Shown piece by piece: positions 9,501 through 30,300 of a DNA stretch of 64,000 bases. The translations under genes and the position numbers were made by a program. This DNA comes from Omnitrophica WOR_2 bacterium GWF2_43_52. GTDB taxonomy: Bacteria > Omnitrophota > Gorgyraeia > Gygaellales > UBA12090. The notes beneath the pieces were generated by a model, which searched no databases, was not told the DNA's origin, and worked only from the letters and a program-made list of their open reading frames with translations. The stretch spans positions 4,270-68,269 of the forward strand of contig MHGF01000029.1 of assembly GCA_001805445.1 (NCBI GenBank). The letters are read 5' to 3'. Position 1 is the first letter of the stretch. Each line of letters opens with the position of its first letter.

Positions 9501-10265
9501 ATGGCGGACGCGAAATGCCCGGGGCAGAACCCGCAATACTGGAAGCCGGAAGATGCCGTTGAGGTGCAATGCCCTCAGTGTAAAGAGATAGTCGAGTTTT
9601 TTAAGGATGAACCGAAAAGGAAATGTTATAACTGCAAGCATGAGGTAATTAATCCTAAAGTTGATTTTGGCTGTGCGTTGTGGTGCCCCAAGGCAGTGGA
9701 ATGCATTGGCCAGGAACGTTATCAACAGCTTTTAGCTTCCGCGAAACAAGCGCCGGCAACAGATAAATACAGGACTAAAAAGGATCTTTTGGTTTTTGAA
9801 ATGGAGCGATATTTCGGGAAGGATACTAAAAGTATTACCCATGCCAAAAAAGTGCTTAGTTTTGCCGAACAGCTTTTGGAAAAGGAAAAGGCGGAGCCTT
9901 TAGTGGTGATTGCCGCGGCTATTCTTCATGATATAGGGATATGTAAGGCAAAAGAAAAGTACGGCAGCCACGCGGCCGGGTATCAGGAAATTGAAGGCCC
10001 CGCGGTTGCCCGGGAAATGATGGAAAAAATCCAGCTTAAAAAAGAAGTCGTTGATGAAGTCTGCGCGATTATTGCCCATCATCACAGCCCTAAGGAAGCG
10101 GAAACATTAAATTTCAAGGTGCTCTATGACGCGGATTGGCTGGTGAATTTTAAGGATGAGTATGCCAGGTATCATAAGGAAGAGGTATCTGAGGTAATAG
10201 AGAGGGTTTTCTTGACAAAAAGTGGTAAGGAGTTGGCGCGGGAACTTTATATTTTGCCTGAGTAA
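9501..10265 (+). CDS. HD-domain phosphohydrolase with N-terminal Cys4 zinc ribbon
   Basis: Two Cys pairs (CPQC, CYNC) form a zinc ribbon. The HD motif is AAILHDIG and a downstream IAHHH is present. Confidence 0.65.
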   Translation: MADAKCPGQNPQYWKPEDAVEVQCPQCKEIVEFFKDEPKRKCYNCKHEVINPKVDFGCALWCPKAVECIGQERYQQLLASAKQAPATDKYRTKKDLLVFEMERYFGKDTKSITHAKKVLSFAEQLLEKEKAEPLVVIAAAILHDIGICKAKEKYGSHAAGYQEIEGPAVAREMMEKIQLKKEVVDEVCAIIAHHHSPKEAETLNFKVLYDADWLVNFKDEYARYHKEEVSEVIERVFLTKSGKELARELYILPE

Positions 10266-10390
10266 GAGATGAGAAAAAGGCATTCTCTATGCAGAACGAT
10301 AGCCCGTTAGGTTTCAAAGATTTTGTGAGGGACATGTAACCTAACGGGATTTTTGTTTCCAAAAATGATGCCTTCAAAAAGAGCATAGCT

Positions 10391-12334
10391 ATGGATCTTG
10401 AAACAGTTTTTCACGATTTTCTTAACAGTTTTAAAGTCGCGCTGAATAATGCTGCGGTGTATTTTCCTGAGCATCCCGTTTTTAAAAAATCAATAGAAGA
10501 CTGCAAACTGAAAATAGAACTACTGGTAACATTTGTTAATCCTATAAGAATTGCTTTTGCTCCGGTTTCGCTATTTTTTAACGGAAAAGTCTTTGAGAAA
10601 ACGCAACTCTATGAAGACCTGGCAAGGTTTTTCCATTTCCGCAAGATCCAAAGCGTAGAAATTAGAAAAGGGGTATCGTTGGAGGAGTTGATTAATTTTT
10701 TCCTTAATGTTTCGAAGAGTCCCCGCGAAATTTTCAAAAAAGGAGTAATAGAGAGCATTGCTAAAAAAGAGAGCATATCTTCTATTAGGGTAGAAGTGTT
10801 AGATTATTCCCAGTTTCTTTGCACTGATTGGGGAGAAGAGGGTAAGGATGTCTGGGCATACCTGTTTAACACTATTATGTCGGAAGAGGATACCCACAAG
10901 ATTGATCATCTTGCTGATAACTTTGAAGAAGTGGTGGGTAGGTTAAAAAGCAGTGATTTACTCGAGAATGAGGAATTGCACTACAGCATGGTTAAATTCC
11001 TTGAATATCTGCAAAGCAAAGAACACCAAAAGTTCCTTGAATGCTCGAAAGCAGTAATGAACCTTATCTTAAAAGACAGGAATATTTCTCAAGAAGCTAT
11101 GCTTGAGAGGGCGCGCACCTTTTTTAGAGGATTAAATGCGGAACAATTGGCAGATACCTTGTGGCAGGAAATTGTAGGGAATGACAGTTTTAACTCCTTA
11201 AGCTTTGGCCTGTTTTCCACCTTAATTAGGGATAAAAAACAACATGAGCAAATTGCCGTTTCTCTGGCGGATAAATTTAAAAAAGACAAGCGGGTTGTTG
11301 ATAACCCTCGCGTAAGAAAAAAGATTCAAGACTTGTTTTTATCTGCGAATACCTCTGTTCCCGAAGTGTATCGTAGCACGCTTTCGATATTACTTAAGGA
11401 GCTAACTACTTCAAAAGCAGGCCAAGCGCTCTTCAATACTCATTCCGTACATAACAGCTATCGTTTTCTTATCCTTAATTTATTGGCGCAGGAAAGAAAT
11501 CGCAGTAGGCTGGCGCTACTATCGGAAAAACTGTTGGCTGAGTGGTCTTCTGTTACTGCCGATAGTGATATAGAGTTTCTGAAAGTGTTTCTAGTAATAA
11601 TGCAGCAAAAAGCAAACGATGTATCTTTTTTTGATACTCTTGAACCGTTGAAAATGCGTGCCCTAAACTTTATAGAAAACGCTCTATTCGAAGAAGAGAA
11701 TTCTTTAGGTATTGAGCGCATGGCTGATTTTCTGACCAATAGTTCTTTGTCTGCAGATGTCTATTTTAATAAGATATTTAAGGAACATAGAGTACATGCT
11801 TCCATTTTACGCCTGTTTTTCCGTTTTTATTCTAGACGTATGCCTGATTTTTACGCTCTTCTGCAAAAGAAATCTAACGATGGCGTATTTCTCAAGGCTA
11901 TGATGGATAGCTTAAAGGAGGTTAATTCAGCCTTGAGCCTGGAAATACTTAAATACATTTATTCACTTGGCGGTATTTTTGTAAAAAAAGAGATACTTGT
12001 CGCCATGCGCCAGATGACAACCCGAGATGAAAACTTTTTGTTTTCCGTCCTCAAGGAAAATAACGTGCTTCTCAGGAAAGAAGCATTCTTGTTGATACGC
12101 AATGATCCTCAGAGCATGGAAAATGCGTTTGAGCTCTTACTATGCATTTCCAGCCCTTTTGGAGTACATAATAAAATTTTGCAGGAAAATATAGAAATAG
12201 CGGCAGAAGCAAAGGCGGCCAAAGAGGCGCTTAGTTATCTTACACTATTAAGCAGGAAAAGGTTTTTTTGGAACCGAGAGGTTAGGGAAAAGGCGCATGC
12301 TGCCTTAATGAGGTTGAATGCAGAAAAATTTTGA
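10391..12334 (+). CDS. Large alpha-helical hypothetical protein whose first ~130 aa are homologous to the N-terminus of the downstream HD-GYP protein
   Basis: 647 aa. Its stop overlaps the next gene's start (ATGCAGAAAAATTTTGA), indicating translational coupling. The shared N-terminal pattern includes YFPEHP.../YPREHP... and (I/V)R(K/R)GV..EEL..F. Confidence 0.5.
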   Translation: MDLETVFHDFLNSFKVALNNAAVYFPEHPVFKKSIEDCKLKIELLVTFVNPIRIAFAPVSLFFNGKVFEKTQLYEDLARFFHFRKIQSVEIRKGVSLEELINFFLNVSKSPREIFKKGVIESIAKKESISSIRVEVLDYSQFLCTDWGEEGKDVWAYLFNTIMSEEDTHKIDHLADNFEEVVGRLKSSDLLENEELHYSMVKFLEYLQSKEHQKFLECSKAVMNLILKDRNISQEAMLERARTFFRGLNAEQLADTLWQEIVGNDSFNSLSFGLFSTLIRDKKQHEQIAVSLADKFKKDKRVVDNPRVRKKIQDLFLSANTSVPEVYRSTLSILLKELTTSKAGQALFNTHSVHNSYRFLILNLLAQERNRSRLALLSEKLLAEWSSVTADSDIEFLKVFLVIMQQKANDVSFFDTLEPLKMRALNFIENALFEEENSLGIERMADFLTNSSLSADVYFNKIFKEHRVHASILRLFFRFYSRRMPDFYALLQKKSNDGVFLKAMMDSLKEVNSALSLEILKYIYSLGGIFVKKEILVAMRQMTTRDENFLFSVLKENNVLLRKEAFLLIRNDPQSMENAFELLLCISSPFGVHNKILQENIEIAAEAKAAKEALSYLTLLSRKRFFWNREVREKAHAALMRLNAEKF

Positions 12335-13646
12335 GACATCTTTAAGAGATTTAATCAATTCGTTACAGTTAGCAAAAATCTACCCAAGAGAACATCCTCA
12401 ATGTAGGAATGCTCTGGATAAGGCGTATGAAAGTTTGCAACATCTCCTCCAAGGCAAGGAAGAGATTGTGGTGGGGATTGTCGGTGATGAATTAGCTTTT
12501 GAGAAGGAAATTTTTCTTGATTTAAGCAGGGCTGTTAAACCGCTCATCCAGTTTCTTAAGGAAAGAGGAGTGGAAAGGATTGTATTCAGACGGGGAGTGC
12601 GAAGAGAAGAGCTTCTCGAATTTATTGTTTTCTTGATTACTCCAAAAGAAGATATTGGAAATAATGCACAACACTACTTATTACTTAAGGGTGTTGAAAA
12701 TATATTTGTTAGTAAAATAAGGCTATCATCTTCGTCTTCTGAAGAGGTGAGGAAATCAGTGCGTTATTTAAACTTATATCACGGCTCCCTTGATGCTATA
12801 TCGAAATCTATGAATGCAGTTTTAAATAGTCAGGCACTCGATTATATAGATCTAAAGTATGCCTTTACTAATATTACGGAGAAGTTATTCGGTGATTATA
12901 AAGATTTTCTCAAATTAACGACGTTAAAAAAGCACGATGTGAGTACATTTGTGCATATGCTTGATGTGGCGATTTTAGCCATGTATCTTTCTTATAGGAT
13001 GAACTTCAGGAAAGAAGAGATTTATAGTATTGGTATTGCCGCGCTTTTTCATGATATCGGGAAGATCTATATTTCGCGTAAAGTAATTGATAAACCTGAT
13101 AAATTGACAGATGAAGAGTTTGCCATGATGAAAAGTCATACTGTCTTGGGAGCGGAAATCCTTTTGAAATATACTGATAGCCTTGGCATCTTATCGCCGA
13201 CGGTTGCCTTCGAACATCATTTGCGATACGATGTTAAAGGTTATCCGAAATTAAGTTTTCCGCATATGCCGCATCAGGCCTCTCTTATTGTTTCAGTGTG
13301 CGATGTTTATGATGCGCTTAATCAGCGCAGGAGCTATAAAAACAGTTATTCTCCCGATATGATTTATAATTTAATGCTTAAAGAAAAGGGTGGATTATTT
13401 GACCCTGAAATCCTGGAAAGATTTTTTAAGGTGATTGGTGTTTGGCCGATAGGGGCAGTAGTAGCTTTAAGTGACCAGAGGGTAGCTGTGGTAGAAGAAG
13501 TAAATGAGGATGATATTTTTTCCCCTCGCGTTAAAATTCTTTCTCCCGATAGTAAGGAAGAGCGGATAGATTTAAGAGAAAGAAAGCCGGAAATCAAGGT
13601 AGAGCATATTGTGGAGGGGTTTGACTACAAGAAAAATTTCTCTTGA
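12318..13646 (+). CDS. HD-GYP domain protein (putative c-di-GMP phosphodiesterase) with novel N-terminal domain
   Basis: HD motif ALFHDIGK. HD-GYP signature HHLRYDVKGYPK. Confidence 0.75.
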   Translation: MQKNFETSLRDLINSLQLAKIYPREHPQCRNALDKAYESLQHLLQGKEEIVVGIVGDELAFEKEIFLDLSRAVKPLIQFLKERGVERIVFRRGVRREELLEFIVFLITPKEDIGNNAQHYLLLKGVENIFVSKIRLSSSSSEEVRKSVRYLNLYHGSLDAISKSMNAVLNSQALDYIDLKYAFTNITEKLFGDYKDFLKLTTLKKHDVSTFVHMLDVAILAMYLSYRMNFRKEEIYSIGIAALFHDIGKIYISRKVIDKPDKLTDEEFAMMKSHTVLGAEILLKYTDSLGILSPTVAFEHHLRYDVKGYPKLSFPHMPHQASLIVSVCDVYDALNQRRSYKNSYSPDMIYNLMLKEKGGLFDPEILERFFKVIGVWPIGAVVALSDQRVAVVEEVNEDDIFSPRVKILSPDSKEERIDLRERKPEIKVEHIVEGFDYKKNFS

Positions 13647-13705
13647 CAGAATTATTGTTTGTGGTATAGTTTAGGTATTGTACAAAGCTGTAAAGCGCAT
13701 AGAGG

Positions 13706-13740
13706 CGTCCAGAACAAAAGTCTGGACGTTTTTTTTGCAG
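13706..13740 (+). terminator. Rho-independent terminator after the HD-GYP gene
   Basis: ggcgtccagaacaaaagtctggacg followed by tttttttt. Confidence 0.6.
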
Positions 13741-14480: not shown

Positions 14481-14640
14481 GTCATATTCCTTAGCTGTGG
14501 TGTACACAGGCGAAAACAATGCTGTTACGCTGATAAAAAATAGTAAAGGGTAAAAGCACCGGGAAAGAAGGGTTAAGACAAAGGGCGTCTTACAAAGAAG
14601 GCGCCTCTTTTATTTTTTAAATAAATGAATGGGTGAGAAA

Positions 14641-14961
14641 ATGAAAAAAATTGAGTGTATTGTCCGTGAGGAAAAACTGAAGGAGCTTACGCAAGCACTG
14701 CGCGAGGTAGGTATAGGCGGCATGACCGTAAGTGAAGTGCGGGGTTTTGGCGTGCAGACCCTGCGCCCTGAAAGTTTTCTTTTTGTGCATAAGGTAAAAA
14801 TAGAGATTTACGCCGCGGATTCACAGGTAAATGAAATTGTGGATACGGTTGTCTCCCATTGCGCTTCCGGGAAATTGGGCGATGGTAAGATCGCGGTGTT
14901 ACCGATGGAAGACTGTATCCGCGTGCGTACAGGAGCGCGTAAGCAAACGGCGCTATTTTAG
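14641..14961 (+). CDS. glnB: Nitrogen regulatory protein P-II
   Basis: MKKIECIVREEKL...GGMTVSEVRGFG is a canonical P-II fold. Adjacent to amtB. Confidence 0.85.
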   Translation: MKKIECIVREEKLKELTQALREVGIGGMTVSEVRGFGVQTLRPESFLFVHKVKIEIYAADSQVNEIVDTVVSHCASGKLGDGKIAVLPMEDCIRVRTGARKQTALF

Positions 14962-15004
14962 TTTTAAGGCTAACAAAGATTCACAAAAAAAAGGAGGAAG
15001 AAAG

Positions 15005-16234
15005 ATGATAAACTCAGGAGATACCGCATTTGTCTTGATGTCGGCGGCATTAGTATTGCTCATGACGCCGGCATTGGCATTTTTTTATGGAGGCATGGTA
15101 AAACGTAAAAACGTATTGGGTATTTTGATGCAGTGTTTTATTCTGATGTGCGTGATAAGCCTGCAGTGGGTACTCTACGGCTATAGCCTTTCTTTTGCCC
15201 CCGGAGAAGGTTTTTGGGGTGGGTTTAGCTGGGCAGGGCTTACTAATGTAGGTTTAGAGCCTTACGCGGATTACGCGGGGACGATTCCTCATCAGGCATT
15301 TATGATTTTTCAGGCAATGTTCGCGATTATTACCCCGGCTTTAATCCTGGGCGCGTTTGCCGAAAGGATGAAGTTTTCTTCCTTTTTAGTTATCATGATT
15401 CTTTGGGCGACATTTGTCTATGATCCGGTCTGCCATTGGGTTTGGGGGCTTGGCGGCTTTATCAGGAAATTAGGCGCTTTGGATTTTGCCGGCGGGACTG
15501 TAGTGCATATCAATGCCGGTATCGCGGCGTTAGTAACGGCGCTTGCTATAGGAAAGAGAAAGAATTTTAATCATAGCCCTACCCCTCCGCATAATGTCCC
15601 TTTTATAGTCTTAGGCGCGGGGTTATTATGGTTTGGCTGGTTTGGGTTTAATTCAGGAAGCGCTTTGGCGGCAAATGGCATAGCGGTGAATGCCTTTGTG
15701 GTTACCAATACCGCGGCAGCCGCGGCAGGCTTAAGTTGGGCGCTTTTGGATTGGATGTTTAACGGCAAGCCCACTATTTTTGGATGTGTCACGGGTGTGG
15801 TTGCCGGGTTGGTCGCGATTACCCCCGCGGCAGGCTTTGTGAATGTTATTTCGGCAATAATTATAGGAGTGGTAGTGAGCATAATATGTTTTATTTCGGT
15901 TACCGTGCTTAAGCCGAAACTTGGCTATGATGATTCTCTCGACGCCTTTGGGGTGCATGGTGTTGGCGGTATTTGGGGGGCGCTGGCAACAGGCTTGTTT
16001 GCTTCCAAAAGTGTTAATCCCGCGGGCGCGGACGGATTATTTTATGGTAACCCGCAGCTTTTTATTATCCAATTAAAAGCAGTCGGAATAACCGTCCTCT
16101 ATTCTTTGATTGTTACTTTTGCTATTTACAAGATTGTGGATATGGTAATGGGGGTGAGGGCGTCAGAGAAGGATGAAGTTGTTGGGCTTGACCTTACTCA
16201 GCACCATGAGGCCGCATATACACTTTTGGAATAG
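15005..16234 (+). CDS. amtB: Ammonium transporter Amt
   Basis: ~409 aa with 11 TM segments and Amt signatures (DFAGGTVVHINAG, GAGLLWFGWFGFN). RBS AGGAGG lies 8 nt upstream. The tracked ORF starting at 14831 is an in-frame upstream extension. Confidence 0.9.
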   Translation: MINSGDTAFVLMSAALVLLMTPALAFFYGGMVKRKNVLGILMQCFILMCVISLQWVLYGYSLSFAPGEGFWGGFSWAGLTNVGLEPYADYAGTIPHQAFMIFQAMFAIITPALILGAFAERMKFSSFLVIMILWATFVYDPVCHWVWGLGGFIRKLGALDFAGGTVVHINAGIAALVTALAIGKRKNFNHSPTPPHNVPFIVLGAGLLWFGWFGFNSGSALAANGIAVNAFVVTNTAAAAAGLSWALLDWMFNGKPTIFGCVTGVVAGLVAITPAAGFVNVISAIIIGVVVSIICFISVTVLKPKLGYDDSLDAFGVHGVGGIWGALATGLFASKSVNPAGADGLFYGNPQLFIIQLKAVGITVLYSLIVTFAIYKIVDMVMGVRASEKDEVVGLDLTQHHEAAYTLLE

Positions 16235-16296
16235 AGATTTCTTTAAAAATGAGGAGCAGCGCTGAACATGTTACATAGGAAGATGATAATTGTTGC

Positions 16297-16350
16297 GTGT
16301 ACCGCTCACCGTAACGGTAAACTGTTGGCGGTAAACGGTAAACGAAACAG
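16297..16350. repeat. Palindromic array with GTACCG/CGGTA core upstream of glnK
   Basis: gtgtaccg ctcaccg taacggta aactgttggcggta aacggta aacgaaac. Confidence 0.45.
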
Positions 16351-16373
16351 TATCTTTAAACAGAGGAGGTTAT

Positions 16374-16715
16374 ATGAAACTTATTATCGCGATTATTCAG
16401 CCGCATAAGTTAGAGGATGTCAAGGCTGAACTCTATAATACAGAAGTAAACCTTATTACCGTAAGTGAAGTTTTAGGCCATGGCCGGCAGAAGGGGGTCA
16501 CTGAGGTGTATCGCGCGGCAAGGGAAAAAGGAAACCTTTTACGAAAGGTTAAACTGGAAATTGCCGTTAACGATAATTTTGTCGAGCCAACCATAAAGGC
16601 GATTACTAAGGGCGCGCGGACAGGTGAGATAGGCGATGGTAAAATCTTTGTGTTAGATTTAAAAGATTGTGTCCGTATCCGCACCGAAGAACGCGGGCCT
16701 ATGGCTATAGGATAA
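16374..16715 (+). CDS. glnK: P-II family protein (GlnK-type)
   Basis: 113 aa P-II fold, directly downstream of amt. Confidence 0.85.
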
Positions 16716-17142
16716 AAGAGATGATGGAAGCCGCATGGCCTCTTGGGTGCGCGAGGGGAGGCCTGCGGTCAAGAAAATATGGGTTACCAAAGTAACCATA
16801 AAATTACTTATCATAATAATAAGGTTATGGTATACTCTTTTCTTGGCGGAAAGTGTAAAAAGGGCAAATCGGTTTGACCGTTAGCCCCTAGAGAGACAAA
16901 AAAATTACAGTAGTGCACTGTGAAATTAGTTCTCAATAGTTGACAGTGCACTAAGGGGGTGTGGGGAAGACCGTTACCCACGATTGGGGGGTGTTCAGCG
17001 TAGCCGACGATGAGTCGGCGGAGCGCCGAAGGGGGGCTTGCTCCCATAGCGGAAGTGCGGAGTTAACTTTCGCTATACTACCAATAATTAAGTTAACAGA
17101 GCACTAGTGCGGTAATATGTTAAAAGTGCCTGCCCACGGCTT

Positions 17143-17300
17143 CGCCGTGAGGCGAGCCGCAAGCAGGGATATCGGATGATCAGGGGATTGGGAGAAAAAG
17201 GTAATATTTTGTTCCCAATATCCTGATGCCCTGATTACCAAATCCTGATACCCTGATTGCCTGATTTCCGTATTTCACATCTATTATAACACATAGTATA
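17143..17300. repeat. Palindromic array of ATCAGGG/ATCGG units followed by CCTGAT units, upstream of glnN
   Basis: cagggatatcggatgatcaggggattggg ... cccaatatcctgat gccctgat taccaaat cctgat accctgat tgcctgat ttcc. It shares its 5' flank AGTGCGGTAATATGTT and 3' flank ACACATAGTATACGAG with the lrp-upstream element. Confidence 0.65.
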
Positions 17301-17316
17301 CGAGTGGAGGAGGATC

Positions 17317-19509
17317 ATGAGTATTCGAGAAGAAGTTTTATTCAAAATTAAGAGTGTTGATTTGGAGAAGAAAGAGCAGCCTGAAAGTGTATCGAGCTAT
17401 TATGGTGAGAATACTTTTAGTGTCTCAACAATGAAAGAGCATATTTCCGAAAGCACATTTAACGCCTTTAAGCGTTGGATGTCCGAAGGAATAACTATTT
17501 CCATGGACCAGGCTAATGAGATTGCCGAGTGCATGAAAAAATGGGCTATGTCTAAGGGAGCGACGTACTATACCCATTGGTTTCAGCCGATGACGGGGTT
17601 AACCGCGGAAAAACACGATAGTTTTATTTCCATAATCGCGCCCGGAAGAGTTATCGAGAAATTTTCAGGGAATAAGCTTATTCAGGGTGAGCCTGATGCC
17701 AGCTCTTTTCCTTCCGGCGGCATACGCGCGACTTTTGAGGCCAGGGGTTATACCGCCTGGGACCCTTCAAGCCCCGCGTTTATCATTGAAAGCACATTGG
17801 GCAAAACGTTGTGCATCCCGAGCATTTTTATTTCCTATCACGGAGAGGCATTAGATAAGAAGCTTCCGCTGTTGCGTTCTGATGAGGCTTTAAATAAAGC
17901 CGCCATAGGCCTGTTACAGCTTTTTGGCCATAAAGATGTTAAAAAAGTAGTTTCTACCTGCGGGCCGGAACAGGAGTATTTTTTAATAGACAAGCATTAT
18001 TATAATTTGAGGCAGGACTTGGTATTGACCGGGCGCACCTTGGTAGGGGCGGGTTCCCCTAAGGGCCAGCAGTTAGAAGACCAGTATTTTGGGACCATTA
18101 AAGAGCGGGTGATTAATTTTATGTTTGAGGTGGCTGAGGAAGCCTATAAGTTAGGCATTCCGGTTATTACCCGGCATAATGAAGTCGCGCCGCATCAATA
18201 TGAGTTCGCGCCTATGTTTGAAGAATCAAATCTTGCCGCTGACCATAATCAGCTCTTGATGGAGTTAATGAAGAAGGTCGCGCTTCGCCATAACATGGTG
18301 TGCTTGTTGCACGAAAAGCCGTTTGCCGGCATAAACGGAAGCGGTAAGCACCTTAATTGGTCCTTGGCGGATGATAAAGGCAACAATCTTTTAAATCCCG
18401 GAGAAACCCCTGAGGATAATCTGCAGTTTCTGGCGGTATTAGCCGCGGTGCTTCGGGCAGTCTACAAGCACTCTGACCTTTTACGCGCGAGTGTGGCAAT
18501 GGCAGGAAATGAGCACCGCTTGGGAGCTAACGAGGCCCCGCCTGCGATTATCAGTGTCTTCCTGGGAAGCCAGTTAACCTCTATCCTGGACATGCTTGAA
18601 AAAGGAGCTAAGAATAAGGTTTCTAAACGCGACATAATTGACTTAGGCATTGCCCGCCTGCCCAAGTTTAATAAAGACACCACCGACCGTAACCGTACTT
18701 CGCCATTTGCCTTTACCGGTAATAAGTTTGAATTCAGGGCGGTAGGCTCTTCTCAGAATATTTCAACGCCTATTACGGTAATTAATACTATTATCGCCGA
18801 GAGCCTGGATTACGTAGCCGATAAAATACGCAAGGCTTCAAGCGGTAAAGATTTTAACACCGCAGTGTTACGGGTGGTTGCTGAGCTTACCAAAGAAACC
18901 AAAGATATCCGTTTTGAAGGCAATAATTATTCCGAAGAGTGGCTGAAAGAGGCCAAGAAACGAGGCCTTCCCAATGTCGCTTCTACCGCGGAGTCATTAA
19001 AGGCGTTGGAGAAGAAGGATAATATCGCCCTGTTTGAGAAATATAAGGTTTTCTCAAAGGAGGAACTTATAGCGCGCTACAAGATTTGGATGGATATGTA
19101 TAATATAACCATAGGAATTGAGGCGAATACCCTGAACGAAATGGTCAATTCCTGTATTGTGCCCGCGGGCTGCGAATACGAGCAATTATTGGCGGATAAT
19201 CTTTTAAAGCTTACACAGCTTAAGAAAGAGGTTAAGTTGGAGTTAGATGCCGCGGTGTTAAATGACCAGAAAGCTCATTTGAGTGAAGTGGCGCAAAAGA
19301 TTTATTACGTCAGGCGCAACTCCAAGGAGCTGGAGAAGCTTTTGGAAAAAGCCGCCGGCCTGCACCACGAAGAGCGCGCGGAGCTTTATTTTGAAGAGCT
19401 CAAGCCGCTTATGGAACATATCAGAAAACATGTTGATGCCTTGGAGCGGGTTGTTTCCGATGAACATTGGGATTTGCCCAAGTATCGCGAGATGCTGTTT
19501 GTAAAATAG
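17317..19509 (+). CDS. glnN: Glutamine synthetase type III
   Basis: 730 aa, GSIII-sized, with GS catalytic-domain similarity. Confidence 0.85.
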   Translation: MSIREEVLFKIKSVDLEKKEQPESVSSYYGENTFSVSTMKEHISESTFNAFKRWMSEGITISMDQANEIAECMKKWAMSKGATYYTHWFQPMTGLTAEKHDSFISIIAPGRVIEKFSGNKLIQGEPDASSFPSGGIRATFEARGYTAWDPSSPAFIIESTLGKTLCIPSIFISYHGEALDKKLPLLRSDEALNKAAIGLLQLFGHKDVKKVVSTCGPEQEYFLIDKHYYNLRQDLVLTGRTLVGAGSPKGQQLEDQYFGTIKERVINFMFEVAEEAYKLGIPVITRHNEVAPHQYEFAPMFEESNLAADHNQLLMELMKKVALRHNMVCLLHEKPFAGINGSGKHLNWSLADDKGNNLLNPGETPEDNLQFLAVLAAVLRAVYKHSDLLRASVAMAGNEHRLGANEAPPAIISVFLGSQLTSILDMLEKGAKNKVSKRDIIDLGIARLPKFNKDTTDRNRTSPFAFTGNKFEFRAVGSSQNISTPITVINTIIAESLDYVADKIRKASSGKDFNTAVLRVVAELTKETKDIRFEGNNYSEEWLKEAKKRGLPNVASTAESLKALEKKDNIALFEKYKVFSKEELIARYKIWMDMYNITIGIEANTLNEMVNSCIVPAGCEYEQLLADNLLKLTQLKKEVKLELDAAVLNDQKAHLSEVAQKIYYVRRNSKELEKLLEKAAGLHHEERAELYFEELKPLMEHIRKHVDALERVVSDEHWDLPKYREMLFVK

Positions 19510-19531
19510 CAGCCGCAGTGAAGGAAAAAAA

Positions 19532-19568
19532 GGGGAAACAGGAATAATGTTTCCCCTTTTTTTTCTTG
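19532..19568. terminator. Bidirectional rho-independent terminator after glnN
   Basis: aaaaaaa-ggggaaac-aggaataat-gtttcccc-tttttttt. Confidence 0.7.
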
Positions 19569-19738
19569 CCTAAAGCCCGACTTTGAGATATTATAAATAT
19601 TCGTTTAAGGAAAGGATAAGTGATAAATTATGAATGATAAATTTAAATTTTCCCCCCTCCATGTTTTTATGCAGGCTATTCTTGTCGTAAGGTACAACGT
19701 AAAACTTATCATTTATAACTTATAATTCATAATTTCTA

Positions 19739-22700
19739 ATGAACAGCCGTCAAAACTTAGAAAAATACGGGCTTTATGATTCGCGCTTTGAACATGATTC
19801 CTGCGGCGTGGGTTTTGTCTGCGACATTAAGGGAAGAAAGGCAAATGCCATTGTTACGCAGGGCGTAACTGTGCTTAAGCGCCTTTCGCATAGGGGCGCA
19901 ACCGGCGCGGATCCAAAAACAGGAGACGGGGCAGGGATACTTATTCAGACGCCTCATGAATTCTTTTGCAAAGCCGCGGAAGCCGCAAAAATTACCCTCC
20001 CGCCTTTTGGAGAATATGCTTCGGGTTTAGTGTTTTTGCCTACCAACGCCAAGGAAAGAAAGTTCTGCAAAGAAGTATTTGCCCAAAGTATAAAAAAAGA
20101 GGGGCAAACTCTCTTAGGCTTTAGAAAAGTTCCTGTTGATAGTTCTGTTATCGGTAAAGCGGCGCAAGATAGCCAGCCGGTGATTGAGCAGATATTTATT
20201 GGCAAAGATAGAAGTAATAGTACGGGGTTCAGGGGACAGCCTGCCTGCCGGCAAGGTAGGGGTTCAGGGGACAAGCCGCAGGCAAAAAGTCAAGAGTCTC
20301 TCGAATTTGAGAGGAAGCTTTATGTTATCCGAAAGCAGGTAGAAAATACCATTCGCTCGTCAAATTTAAAACAAAAATCATTCTTTTATATCCCTAATCT
20401 TTCCAGCCGCACGTTTTCCTATAAAGGCCTGCTGATGCCTGAGCAGGTGGATAAATTTTTCCTTGATTTGCAAGACGAGAGCATAAAAAGCGCGATCTGC
20501 CTGGTGCATTCACGGTATTCAACTAATACCTTCCCGACATGGGATTTGGCGCAGCCGTTTCGGTTCCTGGCGCACAATGGCGAGATAAATACCTTACGCG
20601 GCAATGTTAACTGGATGTCAGCGCGCGAGGGATTATTAAAAAGCGAGCTTTTCGGTAAAGATATTCAGAAGCTAAAGCCGGTTATCGTGCCAGGGGGAAG
20701 TGACTCGGCAATGCTGGATAACGCCTTTGAATTGCTTGTGCTTTCCGGAAGGCCCATTTATCATGCCATGATGATGTTGATTCCGGGCGCGTGGGAACAG
20801 CATGCGTTAATGGATGAGAAACTCAAAGACTTTTATAAATACCATGCCTGTTGTATGGAGCCGTGGGATGGCCCTGCCGCGATTGCCTTTACTGATGGTA
20901 TCCAAATAGGCGCGGTGCTCGACAGAAACGGCCTTCGCCCGGCGCGGTATGTGGTGACTAAGCAAGATTTAGTGGTTATGGCATCGGAAGTGGGGGTATT
21001 GGATATTCCTGCTTCAGACATTGTTACTTCAGGCAGGCTTGAACCGGGGAAGATGTTTTTTATAGATACCCAAGAGCAGCGCATTATTAACGATGATGAG
21101 GTAAAGCAGAGGGTATCCCGCCAACGGCCCTATGGAGCGTGGCTTAAGGAGAACCTGTTAGAGTTTGATGCGTTGACAAGAAAGACGAAGGACGTGGGAC
21201 GAAGGACGAAGGACGATTATGACATACTGACGCAACTCAAAGCTTTTGGGTATACTCGCGAAGATTTAAAAGTTATCATCAAGCCAATGGCTGAGGAAGG
21301 AAAAGAGCCTACGGGCTCAATGGGTAATGATGTGCCCCATGCCGTGCTTTCTAAGCATCCTCAGGTCCTGTATACTTATTTTAAACAACTCTTCGCCCAG
21401 GTTACCAATCCGGCGATAGACCCTATCAGAGAAGAATTGGTGATGAGCCTTTTTAGTTTTGTGGGCTCGCAGAAGAACATCCTGGATGAAACTCCGCAGC
21501 ACGCGCATAAATTACTGGTGAAAGAGCCCATTCTTACCAATGACGGCTTAGAGCGGTTTCGCGCAATCAAAGAAAAGGGGTTTAAATCCAAGATAATCTC
21601 TATACTTTCTCCCGCGGAAGGCGCGAAAAAAGATAAAAAAAGCGGCTTCCTAAAAACCCTTAACCGTATCTGCCAAGAGGCGGCCTCCGCTATAAAAAAA
21701 GGTTATAGTTTTATTATTTTAAGCGACCGTGGGGTGAATAAAAACTATATGGCCTTACCCGCGCTTTTAGCGGTGGGCGCGGTGCATCATTATCTGGTCA
21801 AAAAGGCATTACGCACCCAAATCGGTATTATTTTAGAGGCTGCCGAGCCGCGGGAGGTGCATCATTTTGCTTTATTATTCGGTTATGGCGCTGATTGTAT
21901 TAATCCCTACTTGGCATATGAGGCAATTAAACACCTCATTAATGAAGGCCAGTTAAACTTAGAGCCTGAAAAGGCATTAGAAAATTACCGCCATGCCCTT
22001 GATAAAGGAATATTAAAAATACTCTCTAAAATGGGTATTTCAACCTTACAGAGTTATCGGGGCGCCCAGATATTCGAGGCTTTGGGGATACATCAGGAAG
22101 TCATTGACAAATGTTTTAGCGGGACTGTTTCGCGTATCGGCGGAGCCGGCTTTCAGGAAATTGCCGAGGAGACACTGCTTAGGCATACAGCCGCGTTTTC
22201 TGAAAATTTATTGCACTTCCCTTATTTAGCAAGCGGCGGCGTATATCAATGGAAAAAAGACGGAGAATACCATCTTTGGAATCCGGACACTATCGCCGCG
22301 TTACAGGATGCCGCCCGGCGCGGGGACCATAAGAAATATAAAGAATTCGCAAGCCTCATTAACGACCAGTCTAAAAATCCCACTACCTTACGAAGCCTGC
22401 TGAAATTTTTCTCCGAAGGCTCATCCGCCTCTGGCGGAAAACATACCAAAGCGATTTCTATAGACAAGGTTGAGCCGGCGCAGGCATTATTTAAGCGTTT
22501 GGCTACAGGAGCGATGAGTTTTGGCTCTATCTCCCGCGGCGCCCATGAAAATTTGGCCTTTGCCATGAATAAGCTTGGCGGCCGTTCAAACACCGGTGAA
22601 GGCGGCGAAAACCCTGAACGCTTTAAACCCCTTCCTAATGGTGCATCAGCTCGCAGTGCCATAAAGCAGGTAGCTTCGGGTAGGTTTGGGGTTACTGCCA

Positions 22701-24394
22701 ATTATTTAGTTAATGCAGATGAGCTGCAGATAAAGATTGCCCAAGGCGCAAAACCCGGAGAAGGAGGCCAGCTCCCCGGGCATAAGGTAAGCGCGATTAT
22801 CGCCAAAACCCGTTATACTACCCCGGGAGTAACCCTTATTTCACCGCCCCCGCATCATGATATTTACTCTATTGAAGACCTGGCGCAATTGATATTTGAT
22901 TTAAAGAATGCCAACCCCCGGGCGCGTATAAGCGTAAAATTAGTTTCAGAAATCGGCGTAGGAACCATTGCCGCGGGCGTGGCAAAGGGGCACGCGGATA
23001 TGATTTTGATTTCAGGTGGTGACGGCGGCACGGGAGCGTCTCCGGCGAGCTCGATTAAACATGCCGGGCTCCCCTGGGAATTGGGAATTTCTGAAACCCA
23101 TCAAACGCTTGTGCTTAACGATTTAAGGAGCCGGGTGCGCCTTCAGACAGACGGACAAATGCGTACCGGACGCGACATAGCGATAGCCGCGATTTTAGGG
23201 GCTGAGGAATACGGTTTCTGTACCGCGGCGTTAATCATTTCAGGGTGTGTGATGCTCCGGCACTGCCATTTGAATACCTGTTCTGTGGGGGTAGCCACGC
23301 AGGATGTGATGTTAGAAAAAAGATTTAGCGGCAAGCCCGAATACCTGGTTAATTATTTTACTTTCGTGGTAGAAGAATTGCGGGAGATTATGGCCTCTTT
23401 GGGGATAGCCAAGCTTGATGATATGATTGGCAGGACCGAGCTTTTAGAAGTTAATTCAGAAATTATTCCCTGGAAGGCGAAAAGAATAGACTATTCCCGT
23501 ATCTTGTATAAGCCTAAAGCCCCAAAATCTATCGGCACCTATTGCATGATTACCCAAGATCACGGTATTGATACAATCTTAGACCGTAAGCTGATTGAGC
23601 TTTCCAAACCCGCATTGGAAAAGGCTCAAGGAGTAACGATAACTTTACCCATTGAGAATGTGAACAGGACAACCGGAGCGATGTTAAGCGGTGAAGTCTG
23701 CAGGCGTTATGGCGAAGAGGCATTGCCCGATGGGACCATCACTTGTAAGTTTAAGGGAATCGCGGGGCAGAGCTTTGGGGCATTTTTGGCAAAGGGCATT
23801 ACCTTTGAGCTTGAGGGCATGGCAAATGATTATGTGGGTAAGGGTATTTCCGGCGGTAAAATTATTATCTATCCGGATAAGCGGGCAACATATGTCTCCG
23901 AAGAAAACATTATTATAGGAAATACCACTTTTTACGGGGCAATTACCGGCGAGGCATATATTCGCGGTGTTGCCGGTGAGCGCTTTTGTATACGAAATTC
24001 TGGGTTATTCTCGGTGGTAGAGGGCGTGGGTGACCACGGCTGTGAGTATATGACCGGCGGCAGGGTAATAGTGCTGGGTAGAACAGGACGAAATTTTGGC
24101 GCGGGTATGTCCGGCGGAATTGCGTATGTGTACGATAAAAATGGCGACTTCAAAAATAAGTGCAATATGGAGATGGTGGCATTAGAAAAGTCTGATGCCG
24201 ATGATGAGCTTACCATACGCGATTTACTGCATAATCATTACCGTTATACCAATAGCCCTGTGGCCAAGCAGATGCTTGATAATTTTAATGATACGCTCAA
24301 GAAATTTGTAAAGGTTATGCCGCTTGAGTATAAGCGGATTTTAGAACAGAAGAAGCTGGAGAAGAAGCTGGATTTGGCGGAAGTGTCGGATTGA
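19739..24394 (+). CDS. gltB: Glutamate synthase (GOGAT) large subunit
   Basis: 1551 aa. N-terminal amidotransferase Cys (MNSRQNLEKYGLYDSRFEHDSCGVGFV), FMN/Fe-S central domain, and a C-terminal GXGXG domain. Two in-frame low-complexity insertions are encoded by tandem repeats. Confidence 0.9.
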   Translation: MNSRQNLEKYGLYDSRFEHDSCGVGFVCDIKGRKANAIVTQGVTVLKRLSHRGATGADPKTGDGAGILIQTPHEFFCKAAEAAKITLPPFGEYASGLVFLPTNAKERKFCKEVFAQSIKKEGQTLLGFRKVPVDSSVIGKAAQDSQPVIEQIFIGKDRSNSTGFRGQPACRQGRGSGDKPQAKSQESLEFERKLYVIRKQVENTIRSSNLKQKSFFYIPNLSSRTFSYKGLLMPEQVDKFFLDLQDESIKSAICLVHSRYSTNTFPTWDLAQPFRFLAHNGEINTLRGNVNWMSAREGLLKSELFGKDIQKLKPVIVPGGSDSAMLDNAFELLVLSGRPIYHAMMMLIPGAWEQHALMDEKLKDFYKYHACCMEPWDGPAAIAFTDGIQIGAVLDRNGLRPARYVVTKQDLVVMASEVGVLDIPASDIVTSGRLEPGKMFFIDTQEQRIINDDEVKQRVSRQRPYGAWLKENLLEFDALTRKTKDVGRRTKDDYDILTQLKAFGYTREDLKVIIKPMAEEGKEPTGSMGNDVPHAVLSKHPQVLYTYFKQLFAQVTNPAIDPIREELVMSLFSFVGSQKNILDETPQHAHKLLVKEPILTNDGLERFRAIKEKGFKSKIISILSPAEGAKKDKKSGFLKTLNRICQEAASAIKKGYSFIILSDRGVNKNYMALPALLAVGAVHHYLVKKALRTQIGIILEAAEPREVHHFALLFGYGADCINPYLAYEAIKHLINEGQLNLEPEKALENYRHALDKGILKILSKMGISTLQSYRGAQIFEALGIHQEVIDKCFSGTVSRIGGAGFQEIAEETLLRHTAAFSENLLHFPYLASGGVYQWKKDGEYHLWNPDTIAALQDAARRGDHKKYKEFASLINDQSKNPTTLRSLLKFFSEGSSASGGKHTKAISIDKVEPAQALFKRLATGAMSFGSISRGAHENLAFAMNKLGGRSNTGEGGENPERFKPLPNGASARSAIKQVASGRFGVTANYLVNADELQIKIAQGAKPGEGGQLPGHKVSAIIAKTRYTTPGVTLISPPPHHDIYSIEDLAQLIFDLKNANPRARISVKLVSEIGVGTIAAGVAKGHADMILISGGDGGTGASPASSIKHAGLPWELGISETHQTLVLNDLRSRVRLQTDGQMRTGRDIAIAAILGAEEYGFCTAALIISGCVMLRHCHLNTCSVGVATQDVMLEKRFSGKPEYLVNYFTFVVEELREIMASLGIAKLDDMIGRTELLEVNSEIIPWKAKRIDYSRILYKPKAPKSIGTYCMITQDHGIDTILDRKLIELSKPALEKAQGVTITLPIENVNRTTGAMLSGEVCRRYGEEALPDGTITCKFKGIAGQSFGAFLAKGITFELEGMANDYVGKGISGGKIIIYPDKRATYVSEENIIIGNTTFYGAITGEAYIRGVAGERFCIRNSGLFSVVEGVGDHGCEYMTGGRVIVLGRTGRNFGAGMSGGIAYVYDKNGDFKNKCNMEMVALEKSDADDELTIRDLLHNHYRYTNSPVAKQMLDNFNDTLKKFVKVMPLEYKRILEQKKLEKKLDLAEVSD

Positions 24395-27127: not shown

Positions 27128-27206
27128 TAAATAAGTATTTAACAACAATTAGCTTATATATGTTGCTGGTGTATGGAGGTACGCCAACAACGTAACTAAT
27201 ATATAA

Positions 27207-27250
27207 TGCCGGATTGCCAAAAATGGTCAGTCCGGCATTTTTTATTTTTT
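27207..27250 (+). terminator. Rho-independent terminator/attenuator upstream of the giant gene
   Basis: tgccgga-ttgccaaaaatggtcag-tccggca followed by ttttttatttttt. Confidence 0.5.
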
Positions 27251-27361
27251 GTCCATAACCAAACCCCGCAACCTACGCGGTTGACTTTTTTCCCCGACGG
27301 TAAATTTCCGCAACCTCCGCGGTTGACTTTGGTAAGGGGTTTTTATAGGAGGATTACAAAG

Positions 27362-30300
27362 ATGGTACGTAAGATAATCTCAATAGTAGTAACGATAGGC
27401 TTACTCTTTAACCAAGGCGGGGTTATTTATGCCGCGGGTGAACTTAACCTTTCAAGCTATCTTAGCCAGTTGCATACGAGCCTGGTTAAGCCCGATATCT
27501 TCCGGCCGGTGCACCTGCGCTATTTCTCCTATGACAGCCTGAATAACAGCTACAAGATACTCTTGGATAAAGGAGACTACACCAAGTCACCAAGTCACCA
27601 GGACACCCCCGACGCTTCGGTCGGGGCAGGCAGGTCACCAGAAGAAGATCTCGTGCTCAAGGAAACTGCCCAGGAGTTGATGGACTACTTCCTGATAGGA
27701 GTAACTCTCCCCAATGATACTTTTTGGGTAAACCTAAGGCCTGATGCCCCGGATACCATCATAGACCCTGAGTTAGAGACAACCGATATAGGTAAGATAT
27801 TCCTTGAGGCCGACCTCCAGCTCAAGAAGGATACCGCGAGCTTTACTTCACCCCAAACCCCTGAAGGCAAACAGTATTGGGATAAACTCTATAAAAAGGC
27901 AGGGGAATTATTTGGCTCGGAGAATATTACCATACCTACCTTAACCCGCCCATGGATAGTGCCCAATGAAATCATCGTAAGAGAAACAGATGATTCGGCC
28001 TATGTGTACAAAGCAACGCTTAAGGTGTTGCTGGAAGAAGATTATCTAAAAAGCTCTCAGCCTTCAGCTCTCAGCCCTCAGCAATACAATTTTAAAGATT
28101 CAAGGTTAAAAGAGCTCAATGAATACTCTACCCAGCTTATCAGAGAAACTATAATTCCTAAGCTTACCAGAGAGGTAAACTCAAGCCAAAGGTATGCTAA
28201 GTTACGGCAGGTATACTATTCGCTGATACTTTCAAGATGGTTTAAGGCTCGTTTTAATAGTAAAGAGTCACAAGGTCACCAAGTCACAAGGTCACAAGGA
28301 GAAAATTACATTAATTTAATTGATAGGCGTAATCTCACTAACCTTACCTCAGAAGAACTATGGGATAAGATTACCTATTTTAACCAATACAAAGACTCCT
28401 TCAACAAAGGTGAATATAATATCAAGGAACCTACGTTTACTGCCTACGGCCAGAGTATCAGGAGTTATACCAGCGGGGGGATTGGCATTGGGCAAGCGAT
28501 ATTACCTTTTGAAGCTGATATGCAAGGTCAAGGCGCAGGGAGTCCAATACGGGGAGGAAGTTTTCAAGGGAATAATCCTGTTATTTCTGATGCGGTAATT
28601 GGCGCAGATGAAAAGAGTATAGTTTTAGATGAAAATCTTGAAGTTGTTGAACAGAAGCCTGTTGCCCTCGCCGCCTCGCCGGTGACTGTTGAAGATGCAG
28701 ATCAAAAGATTCTGGATATTCTTGAAGAAGAATTTATTTCAGATATTTTCCCAAAAGATGTGGTAGAGAAGTTTAAAGAATATAAAAGCATTAAAATTAG
28801 CAAATTTAGCAATATTGATAAGGATGTTGGAATGCCCCATGCAAGAAAAGATATAGAGAAATTATCCAGAATAAAAGGCTTTCTTAGGTATGTTATGAAT
28901 GAGTACACTAAAATAAAAGAAAAAGATGAGACCCGAGCGCGGGTACTCCTTAATAAGATAAAAATCTTGCAAGAATATCTAGAACAAGCATTAGGTGGAG
29001 AATTGTCAGTGCTTAAGGAATTTGCCGCTAATATTAATGCTGGAAAAATAACAGTTATTAGCGTTGCCATATTAAAGCAATGGGAAAAATTAATGGCTGA
29101 TATGCTTATTTCTGAAAGATACCACGCATTTGTTAAGCATTTGACTAAGAGAAATATAGAATTCTCTCGGGCAGGGAGCCTGATGAAGATATTGAACTTA
29201 GAAAGAGCAGGTAAGCGCGCCACGCAATTTAAAATTAAAGCTGGAGAGACTCTCGAGAAAAAATATAACCCCGGAGATAAATTTATTTTCAACGATGTTT
29301 TGCCGGATATTGCTTTAGGAATTAACTTTGGGGGGATACTTACTGATATAATAGTAAACGCTAATCCGCTCTTGTGGGGAAATGTGCTTATTCTTCCCGA
29401 TCCCAGTAAGTGCCTTAGCCAATATTTTAACAAAGAAGCAGCGATAGTAGCTCTTAATTTATTGGATAAGTTTAACAACCCGGGTTATAAACTAGGATTT
29501 AATGGCCCTGGGGCTTTTGCTTCTGTCCCTCAACTTCATCTGCAGGGATTTGATTATTTTGACAGCACTGGAGAAGATAAATTGCCCGTAGAAAACGCTG
29601 AAAAAACTTCTTTTTTCAGCAATAACAACGTATCCATTATGACTCTATCAGATTGGGCAGTCAATACCATTGTTTTAAACGGTAGTTCATTAGATTCATT
29701 AAACAAAGCGCTGGTATTACTTACCGATATATTGCATAAACGTAATCAACCGTTTAATATCGTTTTCACAAAAAATAGTGATAACAACTATGCTGTGTAT
29801 GTTTTTCCTAGAAAGCTGGAAGGCCCTGGGGGGGTTTTTGGCACAGGCGTTGCATTTTTAGAGTTAGCCGGAGCAGTATTGTTTACTAATCAGAATTTTG
29901 GCGGAGTGATGTTAAAAGATAAAGATAAAGAAAATCTTGAACAGCGCATAGCTTATCTTAAAAACATACGTCAGATAATATTTGGGGGTGGGACTATTGC
30001 AGAAGACCTCGTTCAGAGTGTTGGACTCGATTGGAAGGATGTTTCCAGCAAATTGATCGAAAATGGTTGGGCGAAGCCAAAAAATAAAACAGAAGTGACT
30101 TTAACAGCAAGTTTGGAACAGGTAAAAGACAGCATGTCAAGAGTTTTTGGTGATAAATGGGAAAAAATTATCTCAATCCTGGAGATTGATGACTTTCGTT
30201 ATGAAAATGAAAAAAACAAAGACGGTGATTATGTTTATTATGCTCGTCCCAAGAGAAGCGGTGAAAGCAAAGAAATTACCCCGTCGGATCTTAGCAATAA

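Follow-up and report, generated by a model that had tools for sequence, protein, structure and literature searches.

Overlapping genes for an HD-GYP protein and a predicted alpha-solenoid partner with homologous N-terminal domains in an Omnitrophota bacterium

In c-di-GMP turnover, the regulation of HD-GYP phosphodiesterases is the aspect understood least. In a stretch of 64,000 nucleotides from Omnitrophica WOR_2 bacterium GWF2_43_52 (contig MHGF01000029.1; here called the window), a gene for an HD-GYP protein (gene B) directly follows a gene for a long helical protein (gene A), and the question raised by the locus is why two such products should begin alike and whether they act together. An earlier note, made from the sequence alone, had suggested that a common N-terminal domain joins them in a heteromeric signalling complex. 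Database annotation of the two proteins is limited to 'hypothetical' or 'HD domain-containing'.

Layout and inheritance of the gene pair

Both open reading frames were confirmed from the sequence at the positions given in the earlier note (Table 1). The overlap that it had described between the stop of A and the start of B is real: the ATG of B lies 17 nt before the end of the A TGA, and a Shine-Dalgarno-like GAGG is found inside the end of A, just 5' of this ATG. The overlap is kept in 73 of 78 related loci, mostly at 11 or 17 nt, and a GGAG-type motif is usually embedded within the end of A. The locus accordingly shows the sequence features of bicistronic coupling, i.e., a start codon within the overlap and a ribosome-binding-site-like motif within A, both conserved, and translational coupling of B to A is predicted from the overlap and the GAGG.

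Table 1. Features of the A–B locus, with positions numbered within the window
Feature	Positions	Strand	Description
Hairpin and T-run, 5' of A	10303..10358	+	11-bp stem CCCGTTAGGTT/AACCTAACGGG; predicted fold
Gene A	10391..12334	+	ORF, 647 aa; N-domain followed by predicted alpha-solenoid
N-domain of A	10391..10801	+	aa 1-137
Junction and solenoid of A	10802..12331	+	junction aa 138-165, solenoid (predicted) aa 166-647
A/B coupling region (predicted)	12311..12334	+	GAGG 12311-12314, B ATG 12318, A TGA 12332-12334
Gene B	12318..13646	+	ORF, 442 aa; HD-GYP protein
N-domain of B	12318..12722	+	aa 1-135; homologous to that of A
Helical linker of B	12723..12932	+	aa 136-205
HD-GYP catalytic domain of B	12933..13436	+	aa 206-373; Pfam HD_5 and HD
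C-terminal small beta domain of B	13437..13643	+	aa 374-442
Hairpin and T8, 3' of B	13701..13737	+	predicted fold

The hairpin upstream of A (computed dG -19.8 kcal/mol, z -3.2) is likely the terminator of the preceding Zn-ribbon/HD gene and sets the 5' boundary of the A–B unit, while the hairpin with T8 downstream of B (computed dG -23.5, z -5.0) is likely the terminator of the unit itself. A near-consensus sigma-70 promoter-like site, whose meaning is uncertain, is present at 13643-13670, ahead of the 3' hairpin. The RNA around the pair has no Rfam match at E ≤ 1, riboswitches included, and neither a further protein with this N-domain nor a GGDEF protein was found in the 64-kb window.

Genome context, which the earlier note had named as a check, shows linkage in both directions. 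In each of the 77 A-containing loci with downstream DNA, B follows A directly and on the same strand; these loci span two phyla (Omnitrophota and Aminicenantes) and four or more unrelated genomic contexts. In six of six reverse look-ups A directly precedes B. No third neighbour of the pair is conserved, the flanking genes varying by lineage; in Omnitrophota, genes of glutamine/nitrogen metabolism repeatedly flank it. Judged by the lengths of homologues, no A–B fusion protein was seen. The two genes are transcribed together, overlap, and are inherited as a pair.

A divergent second pair, consisting of A' (a HEAT_2 partner; Pfam E value 5e-16) and B' (an HD-GYP protein), is adjacent in 14 of 14 loci and sometimes stands in tandem with A/B. 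Homology between the solenoid of A and the HEAT_2 region of A' did not reach significance (E value 0.05).

A shared N-terminal domain on two different proteins

The first ~135 residues of A and B are homologous. A single BLASTP comparison gave 23% identity over 128 residues (E value 2e-5), and the profiles of the two N-domain families aligned over 133 columns with an hhalign probability of 97.9% (E value 4.6e-13), so that the similarity claimed in the earlier note withstands the profile-profile comparison that it had proposed and a chance resemblance is ruled out. Full-length profiles aligned solely between A 1-141 and B 1-138 (E value 4e-9); because the alignment is confined to the N-domain, the possibility that A is a degenerate HD-GYP paralogue is ruled out as well. 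The earlier note had not recognised this domain, and it is indeed absent from Pfam, NCBIfam and the sequences of the PDB. The best PDB sequence matches obtained in the search for a known structure of the N-domain or of A had E values of 0.012 and 0.048, the former being a chance FFENHPYF stretch in MxA.

In the AlphaFold models, the N-domain of A (pLDDT about 90) has the order of elements H H E E E H E H H H E, and that of B is alike. The invariant or nearly invariant residues in A include Y24, H28, P29, H82, R84 and K85, with an invariant basic cluster formed by K33, K39, K41, H82, R84 and K85, while Y22, H26, G53, E58, S70 and E98 are invariant in B. Common to both families are a Y-x-x-x-H-P turn, located between helix 1 and helix 2, and a basic [H/K]-x-R element; in A'/B', Asn stands where the shared motif has His (IYPSENP, IYEPNNL). 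This is a previously unannotated alpha/beta domain of ~135 residues, regulatory in B. Its profile matches ~5,100 protein clusters (defined at 50% identity), and it is therefore large enough to merit a family definition of its own. All 146 newly listed representatives are A-like or B-like, in a survey that covers a small part of these clusters; since ~4,950 lie outside it, other architectures may exist. Two stretches considered as second copies of the domain within A scored only 0-8 bits.

Beyond the N-domain, A had been described in the earlier note as a long alpha-helical protein, and the AlphaFold2 model (mean pLDDT 85.4) is all-helical over residues 139-643. Foldseek matches to SF3B1, transportin, the PP2A A subunit and designed armadillo proteins (E values 2e-5 to 3e-3) agree with this, and on the model the region is a HEAT/ARM-like alpha-solenoid of ~500 residues. 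At the sequence level A matches no Pfam family at E ≤ 1, HEAT-type models included, and no NCBIfam model. The protein is conserved over its full length in 32 relatives (33-100% identity), which settles the doubt that the 647-aa frame might not be conserved; the junction (LDYSQLL..GEE.KD.W) and an RFFWN motif close to the C-terminus are conserved too.

The assignment of B as an HD-GYP protein is upheld by several lines of evidence. Above the Pfam gathering thresholds, residues 211-373 match HD (PF01966; 51.2 bits, cut-off 22) and HD_5 (PF13487; 49.2 bits, cut-off 27.2). The best solved relative by sequence is PmGH, the c-di-GMP phosphodiesterase of Persephonella marina (PDB: 4MCW; E value 2e-25), and Foldseek retrieves 4mcw (E value 3.5e-8), 4r8z, 9rbz and 3tm8 with E values from 3.5e-8 to 1e-4 and a probability of 1.00. 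Residues H213, H245, D246, H274, H300, H301, Y309, P310 and D329 are invariant among 53 members of the B family, G308 is nearly so, and the metal and GYP residues align with those of 4mcw, the HD, HH, D and GYP residues all being kept. From this homology, B is predicted to be a catalytically competent HD-GYP phosphodiesterase, as regards both substrate and activity. The residue E185 of PmGH, reportedly described by Bellini et al. in 2014 as the ligand of the third iron, corresponds to a Ser in B and is not conserved across the B family, which makes a site with two metals, like that of PA4781 (4R8Z), the more likely one. In sequence, the N-terminal domain of PmGH is unrelated to that of B. Between the N-domain and the catalytic domain, the model places linker helices at 142-169 and 176-191, in the least conserved region of B (mean pairwise identity 0.33), and the C-terminal beta domain has its strands at 381-431 with the motif GVWPIG..V.LSD.R.AVV; matches found by tblastn continue across this domain.

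In its general plan (N-terminal domain, linker, HD-GYP, beta domain), B resembles the DUF3391-type HD-GYP proteins, for example Salinivibrio WP_269580181.1 (locus L082). The N-terminal domains of both comprise ~110-135 residues, and the C-terminal motif G-x-[YW]-P-[IV]-G-[SA]-x-V-x-L is seen in the Salinivibrio protein also. The Foldseek match 3tm8 is Bdellovibrio Bd1817, a DUF3391-type HD-GYP protein (PMC12943098). In contrast to these proteins, the N-domain of B starts with a two-helix hairpin and is not detectably DUF3391, and for DUF3391 proteins a partner with a second copy of the N-terminal domain has not been described.

A proposed two-subunit signalling unit and its alternatives

Because A and B carry the same N-domain and are always found together, they most likely act as a two-protein signalling unit, one not known to have been described previously. 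We would give roughly even chances to the fuller proposal that both are subunits of a single cytoplasmic signalling unit, a heteromer paired through the N-domains in which the solenoid regulates or targets the phosphodiesterase. The heteromeric complex envisaged in the earlier note is consistent with the two-way linkage, the conserved overlap, the second co-inherited pair and a mirror-tree signal. In this signal, the pairwise divergence of the two N-domains is correlated (Spearman 0.71; partial 0.49; Mantel p about 0.001) more highly than that of any other pair of regions, with an excess over the next-best pair that is not significant (95% interval -0.06 to +0.13 when taxa are bootstrapped). 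The 63 sequence pairs are too small a number for contact covariation. Net-charge complementarity between the N-domains of A and B was weak.

In such a unit, overlapping translation would provide matched amounts of A and B, and the N-domains would pair as a pseudo-symmetric heterodimer, replacing or adding to the homodimer that is usual among HD-GYP proteins. The solenoid of A would be a non-catalytic subunit, serving either as a gate on the phosphodiesterase or as its tether to a client protein, with local control of the hydrolysis of c-di-GMP or a related cyclic dinucleotide as the result. Either the interface or a ligand site may include the Y-x-x-x-H-P turn and the [H/K]-x-R patch of basic residues, and a ligand pocket would explain the conserved polar residues equally well.

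Partial precedents exist. RpfG of Xanthomonas works through complexes with GGDEF proteins, and 'trigger' or local c-di-GMP phosphodiesterases are known; as with the role proposed for B, their output is tied to a dedicated protein partner beyond the global level of c-di-GMP. Their partners, however, are enzymes or transcription factors whose genes lie elsewhere, whereas A is a predicted solenoid encoded by an overlapping gene and shares the N-domain of B. The A subunit of PP2A offers a functional analogy only, in that a HEAT solenoid serves as the non-catalytic subunit of a phosphoesterase; Foldseek matches A to its chains 9mf5_A, 6iur_E and 2pf4_B, among others, with TM scores of 0.14-0.24, and these matches reflect the repeat fold only. 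The catalytic subunits of the two systems are not homologous, and A has an additional N-terminal alpha/beta domain.

It is also conceivable, and in our estimation unlikely, that A and B form no complex and that their N-domains sense the same small-molecule or protein cue independently, as members of one regulon. The polar and basic residues conserved in both families (Y..xHP and [H/K]-x-R) would suit this, as would the general view that N-terminal domains of HD-GYP proteins are sensory (PMC12943098). Co-regulation alone, however, needs neither an overlap conserved in 73 of 78 loci nor paired co-duplication; moreover, the shared His has become Asn in A'/B', and the N-domain proteins inspected show just the A-like and B-like architectures.

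We consider it improbable that the N-domain is a very divergent DUF3391 and B an ordinary DUF3391-type HD-GYP protein, a matter of classification only and one compatible with pairing. Such a reading of the many unannotated HD-GYP N-termini has been proposed (PMC12943098), B has the HD-GYP and beta-domain chassis of the DUF3391-type proteins, and the N-domain has, as does DUF3391 itself, a helix followed by an L-K-x-x-G-[IV]-x-x-[IV] motif. Neither hmmscan nor hhalign bears it out. At E ≤ 1, PF11871 matched none of 36 N-domain sequences and neither full-length A nor full-length B, while two DUF3391 proteins from plasmids (L082 and L084), used as positive controls, scored 59.9 and 68.2 bits. The hhalign probability was 0.4-0.5%, in a comparison of limited sensitivity as the DUF3391 side was one sequence or a three-sequence alignment. 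Canonical DUF3391, a fold of 4-5 antiparallel strands and 1-2 helices with a helix at its C-terminal end, is also without the two long N-terminal helices, and even a true relationship would leave the paralogous copy on a HEAT-like partner undescribed.

Slimmer again is the prospect that A acts as receptor or effector of the nucleotide degraded by B, with a nucleotide-binding shared domain and a linkage that reflects a pathway rather than a complex. The invariant basic cluster in the N-domain of A might be read in this way, and identified c-di-GMP receptors are missing in many organisms (PMC12448109), but the cluster is kept only partly in B and in A'/B', and the Pfam and NCBIfam scans revealed no PilZ, MshEN or other known receptor family. 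Finally, an anti-phage defence or toxin-antitoxin-like module of an HD nuclease and a repeat-protein partner, as might be suggested by the overlapping two-gene arrangement and by weak generic matches of B to Cas3/Cas10 HD models (E values 2e-4 to 8e-3), is very improbable, since A has no PADLOC match and those of B are generic to the HD superfamily, B has the full HD-GYP signature, the pair keeps a stable syntenic position amid housekeeping genes, outside variable islands, and its dip in GC content is modest (0.38 against about 0.42-0.45 in the flanks).

Implications for HD-GYP regulation

Returning to the two-subunit unit, a more far-reaching version can be put forward only tentatively, and we regard it as rather doubtful. 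In it, the N-domain would be a dedicated hetero-pairing module defining an obligate two-subunit class of HD-GYP enzymes, the HEAT-type subunit would gate the enzyme or couple it to a specific client, in Omnitrophota perhaps in glutamine/nitrogen metabolism, and A/B would be insulated from A'/B' in the manner of paralogous two-component systems.

To our knowledge, DUF3391, a common N-terminal domain of HD-GYP proteins, has no known role, and we know of no other HD-GYP enzyme with an overlapping-gene partner that bears a paralogous copy of the enzyme's regulatory domain. The locus provides a testable two-gene unit from Omnitrophota and Aminicenantes, phyla not known to have cultured model organisms. 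Should the heteromer prove real, second-messenger signalling would gain a mode of control based on subunits.

Organization and inheritance of the A/B pair

The gene for the 647-aa protein A and the gene for the HD-GYP protein B share 17 nt, so that the stop codon of the first overlaps the start of the second, as the earlier note had read them. Immediately 5' of A is a stable hairpin that carries a T-run, and a stronger one lies 3' of B; with their overlap, the two genes therefore have the appearance of a bicistronic unit complete in itself. Nothing inside or near the unit matched an Rfam family. A near-consensus sigma-70 promoter, TTGACA-16 nt-TG-TATAGT (11/12), begins at the stop codon of B and is followed after ~30 nt by a strong hairpin with T8; this arrangement, also without a match in Rfam, may encode a small RNA of ~60 nt, or it is no more than the terminator of the operon next to a promoter-like sequence that arose by chance.

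The 647-aa ORF is conserved in relatives. The A family was found at 74 loci in a scan of GTDB species genomes; the record names are mostly Omnitrophota, with eight Aminicenantes and one Margulisiibacteriota, several of the loci coming from MAGs with doubtful labels. The co-occurrence in relatives that the earlier note wished to see checked was seen in both directions at every locus examined. B is the next same-strand gene after A in 77/77 loci with downstream DNA (window included), and in the reverse look-up, from six B proteins encoded on long contigs, an A-family member lies directly upstream in 6/6 (640-648 aa; HMM scores 671-839). The two genes overlap at 73 of the 78 loci compared, by 11 nt (34 loci), 17 nt (19 loci) or 4-28 nt (the rest), and gaps of 10-122 nt separate A from B in the other five; the 3' end of A usually contains a GGAG-type motif. 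The genes flanking A/B vary by lineage, and no third conserved gene was seen among the flanks compared across lineages. A and B are inherited together.

Several features of the neighbourhood were also recorded. The zinc-ribbon/HD gene directly upstream of A recurs in this position at L005-L008, L016, L020, L066 and L068 (loci examined for comparison); it is confined to window-type synteny (aminotransferase, YqeY, MazG-like, small ORF, zinc-ribbon/HD gene) and absent from other A/B contexts. In Omnitrophota, glutamine, glutamate and ammonium genes repeatedly flank A/B (the window, L110 and many of L036-L079), with the order PyrK-like, GltD-like, GDH, A-B, (PyrG), CarA, CarB at ~35 loci. Since the Aminicenantes flanks differ, the arrangement may reflect common descent of the gene order rather than a link in function. 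In one Omnitrophota contig (L113), the genes after B encode a receiver domain on its own and another HD-GYP protein, of GAF-like type, so genes of c-di-GMP turnover can cluster with A/B. Elsewhere in the window are a single ORF of 3,007 aa, which lies in lower-GC DNA (0.38-0.42), and an 813-aa ORF matching no Pfam family at E <= 0.01.

Table. Coordinates of the A/B unit, the related pair A'/B' and other features (window positions unless a locus or residues are given)
Feature	Position	Strand	Remarks
Gene A	10391-12334	+	ORF, 647 aa
Gene B	12318-13646	+	ORF, 442 aa
Coupling region	GAGG 12311-12314; B ATG 12318; A TGA 12332-12334	+	17-nt overlap
Hairpin and T-run 5' of A	10303-10358		dG -19.8, z -3.2
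Hairpin 3' of B	13701-13737		dG -23.5, z -5.0; 55 nt beyond gene end
Promoter-like site and hairpin	13643-13737		
B N-domain	aa 1-135		AlphaFold2 model
B helical linker	aa 136-205		AlphaFold2 model
B HD-GYP domain	aa 206-373		AlphaFold2 model
B small beta domain	aa 374-442		AlphaFold2 model
A'/B'	L009 10152-13578		N-domain + HEAT_2 gene, then N-domain + HD-GYP gene
A'/B' in tandem with A/B	L090, L094, L096, L103		
A'/B' alone	L097, L100, L108		
Zinc-ribbon/HD gene	9501-10265		254 aa; N-terminal zinc-ribbon-like Cys cluster, plain HD domain
Nitrogen genes	14629-24394		Sigma factor, PII, Amt, PII, GS type III, GOGAT
3,007-aa ORF	27206-36229	+	
813-aa ORF	46169-48610		
Receiver and second HD-GYP genes	L113 4438-5978		
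Plasmid HD-GYP gene	L081 692-1947		Pseudomonas plasmid pSDM007

The shared N-terminal domain

Residues 2-119 of A and 4-126 of B share 23 % identity (BLASTP, E 2e-5). The likeness of the two N-termini stands in profile-profile comparison (hhalign probability 97.9 %, E 4.6e-13, 133 columns; N-terminal ~137 residues from 17 members of the A family and 19 of the B family) and, judged from these alignments, is homology. Full-length family profiles align solely at A 1-141 and B 1-138 (E 4e-9), which rules out that A is a decayed HD-GYP protein. AlphaFold2 models on the family alignments are confident in this domain (pLDDT there about 90 for A, 78-93 for B), and in both proteins its elements fall at corresponding positions in the order H H E E E H E H H H E. 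Only one Tyr and one His (Y24 and H28 in A, Y22 and H26 in B) are invariant across the two families; the Y-x-x-x-H-P motif to which they belong is placed by the models at the turn joining predicted helices 1 and 2.

The domain had not been recognised in the earlier note, and it is without annotation in Pfam (0/36 sequences at E <= 1 to any relevant model, scattered hits being noise), NCBIfam and PDB sequences, where the profile search returned only MxA, a chance match. That it is a divergent DUF3391, the common N-terminal domain of HD-GYP proteins, is unlikely in our estimate and would be purely a matter of classification. In a representative library of 1.84 billion proteins, the combined N-domain profile matched 5,099 clusters at E <= 1e-3, 1,258 at <= 1e-10 and 125 at <= 1e-30. 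Of these 5,099 clusters, inspection covered 146 newly listed proteins, some of them complete and the others truncated at the end of a contig; 128 were A-like and 18 B-like.

A second, divergent pair, A'/B', is present in Aminicenantes-type contigs. A' joins the N-domain to Pfam HEAT_2 repeats (E 5e-16), and B' joins it to HD_5 and a C-terminal motif as in B; in a metagenome scan with B', A' was directly upstream in 14/14 loci with upstream DNA. The pair stands alone in some loci and in tandem behind A/B in others, about 0.8 kb downstream in some contigs, which indicates that the whole two-gene unit was duplicated. Because A'/B' carry IYP-x-ENP or IYEPNN, the His of the motif is not universal.

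Architecture of B and A

The HD-GYP assignment made earlier for the second protein was upheld: residues 211-373 match Pfam HD and HD_5, and the HD, HH, D and GYP residues line up with those of PmGH, the Persephonella marina phosphodiesterase (4mcw; E 2e-25). H213, H245, D246, H274, H300, H301, Y309, P310 and D329 do not vary among 53 diverse B-family members, and Foldseek matched the model to the solved HD-GYP structures 4mcw, 4r8z, 9rbz and 3tm8. The catalytic part is ordinary. A two-metal site is predicted, since the residue aligned with PmGH E185, the reported ligand of the third iron in that enzyme, is not conserved. Close relatives of B number >1,000; the top 120 match over the full length with identities of 51 % or more, the named organisms among them being Candidatus Omnitrophota. 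The 90 %-cluster co-members of A and B are each a 'hypothetical protein' with consecutive locus tags in Omnitrophica WOR_2 MAGs. A widespread mobile HD-GYP gene, found on pSDM007 and many other plasmids, is split in its annotation. One part is a 'DUF3391 domain-containing protein' of 100 aa, the latter half of which is a PREPRE repeat-like frameshift product, and the HD-GYP protein is annotated apart from it; many clinical plasmids seem to carry a DUF3391-HD-GYP gene that has been disrupted.

A has no match in Pfam, NCBIfam or PDB sequences. Its model is wholly helical past the N-domain (pLDDT 85.4), in agreement with the long alpha-helical continuation described before, and its Foldseek matches are HEAT/ARM solenoids (E 2e-5 to 3e-3), among them SF3B1, transportin, the PP2A A subunit and designed armadillo proteins. 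In one 832-aa homologue (P0005) the last ~190 residues of an A protein are directly duplicated, probably because of misassembly or of a tandem duplication that occurred recently.

Proposed function and alternatives

The best-supported reading, to which we give roughly an even chance, is that A and B are a two-subunit signalling enzyme. B would be an active HD-GYP phosphodiesterase, and A its partner without catalytic function, bound to it via the paralogous N-domains and regulating or targeting it with the solenoid. Gene linkage, overlap, N-domain homology and the folds are direct results of the analysis; the complex, the substrate of B and what the solenoid does are inferred from them. Pairwise identities were compared by region across 63 non-redundant A/B pairs. 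Those of the A and B N-domains correlate (Spearman 0.71; partial correlation 0.49 with the remainder of each protein taken into account; Mantel permutation p ~0.001) more strongly than any other region combination, within-protein ones included, with a lead over the next-best pair that is not significant (taxon bootstrap 95 % interval -0.06 to +0.13). As a sign of interaction this co-divergence is suggestive only. Charge complementarity of the N-domains is weak, and no fused A-B protein was seen among the A and B relatives and N-domain proteins listed.

That A and B each sense one signal independently is a less probable account, and that A is a nucleotide receptor more doubtful still. A defence module, for which PADLOC gave no support, is very improbable.

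A literature search found no paper tying HD-GYP to a HEAT-like partner of this kind. Two things are new in the proposed two-subunit enzyme: the family that the N-domain represents, and the duplication of this domain onto a HEAT-like partner whose gene is obligate and overlaps that of the enzyme.
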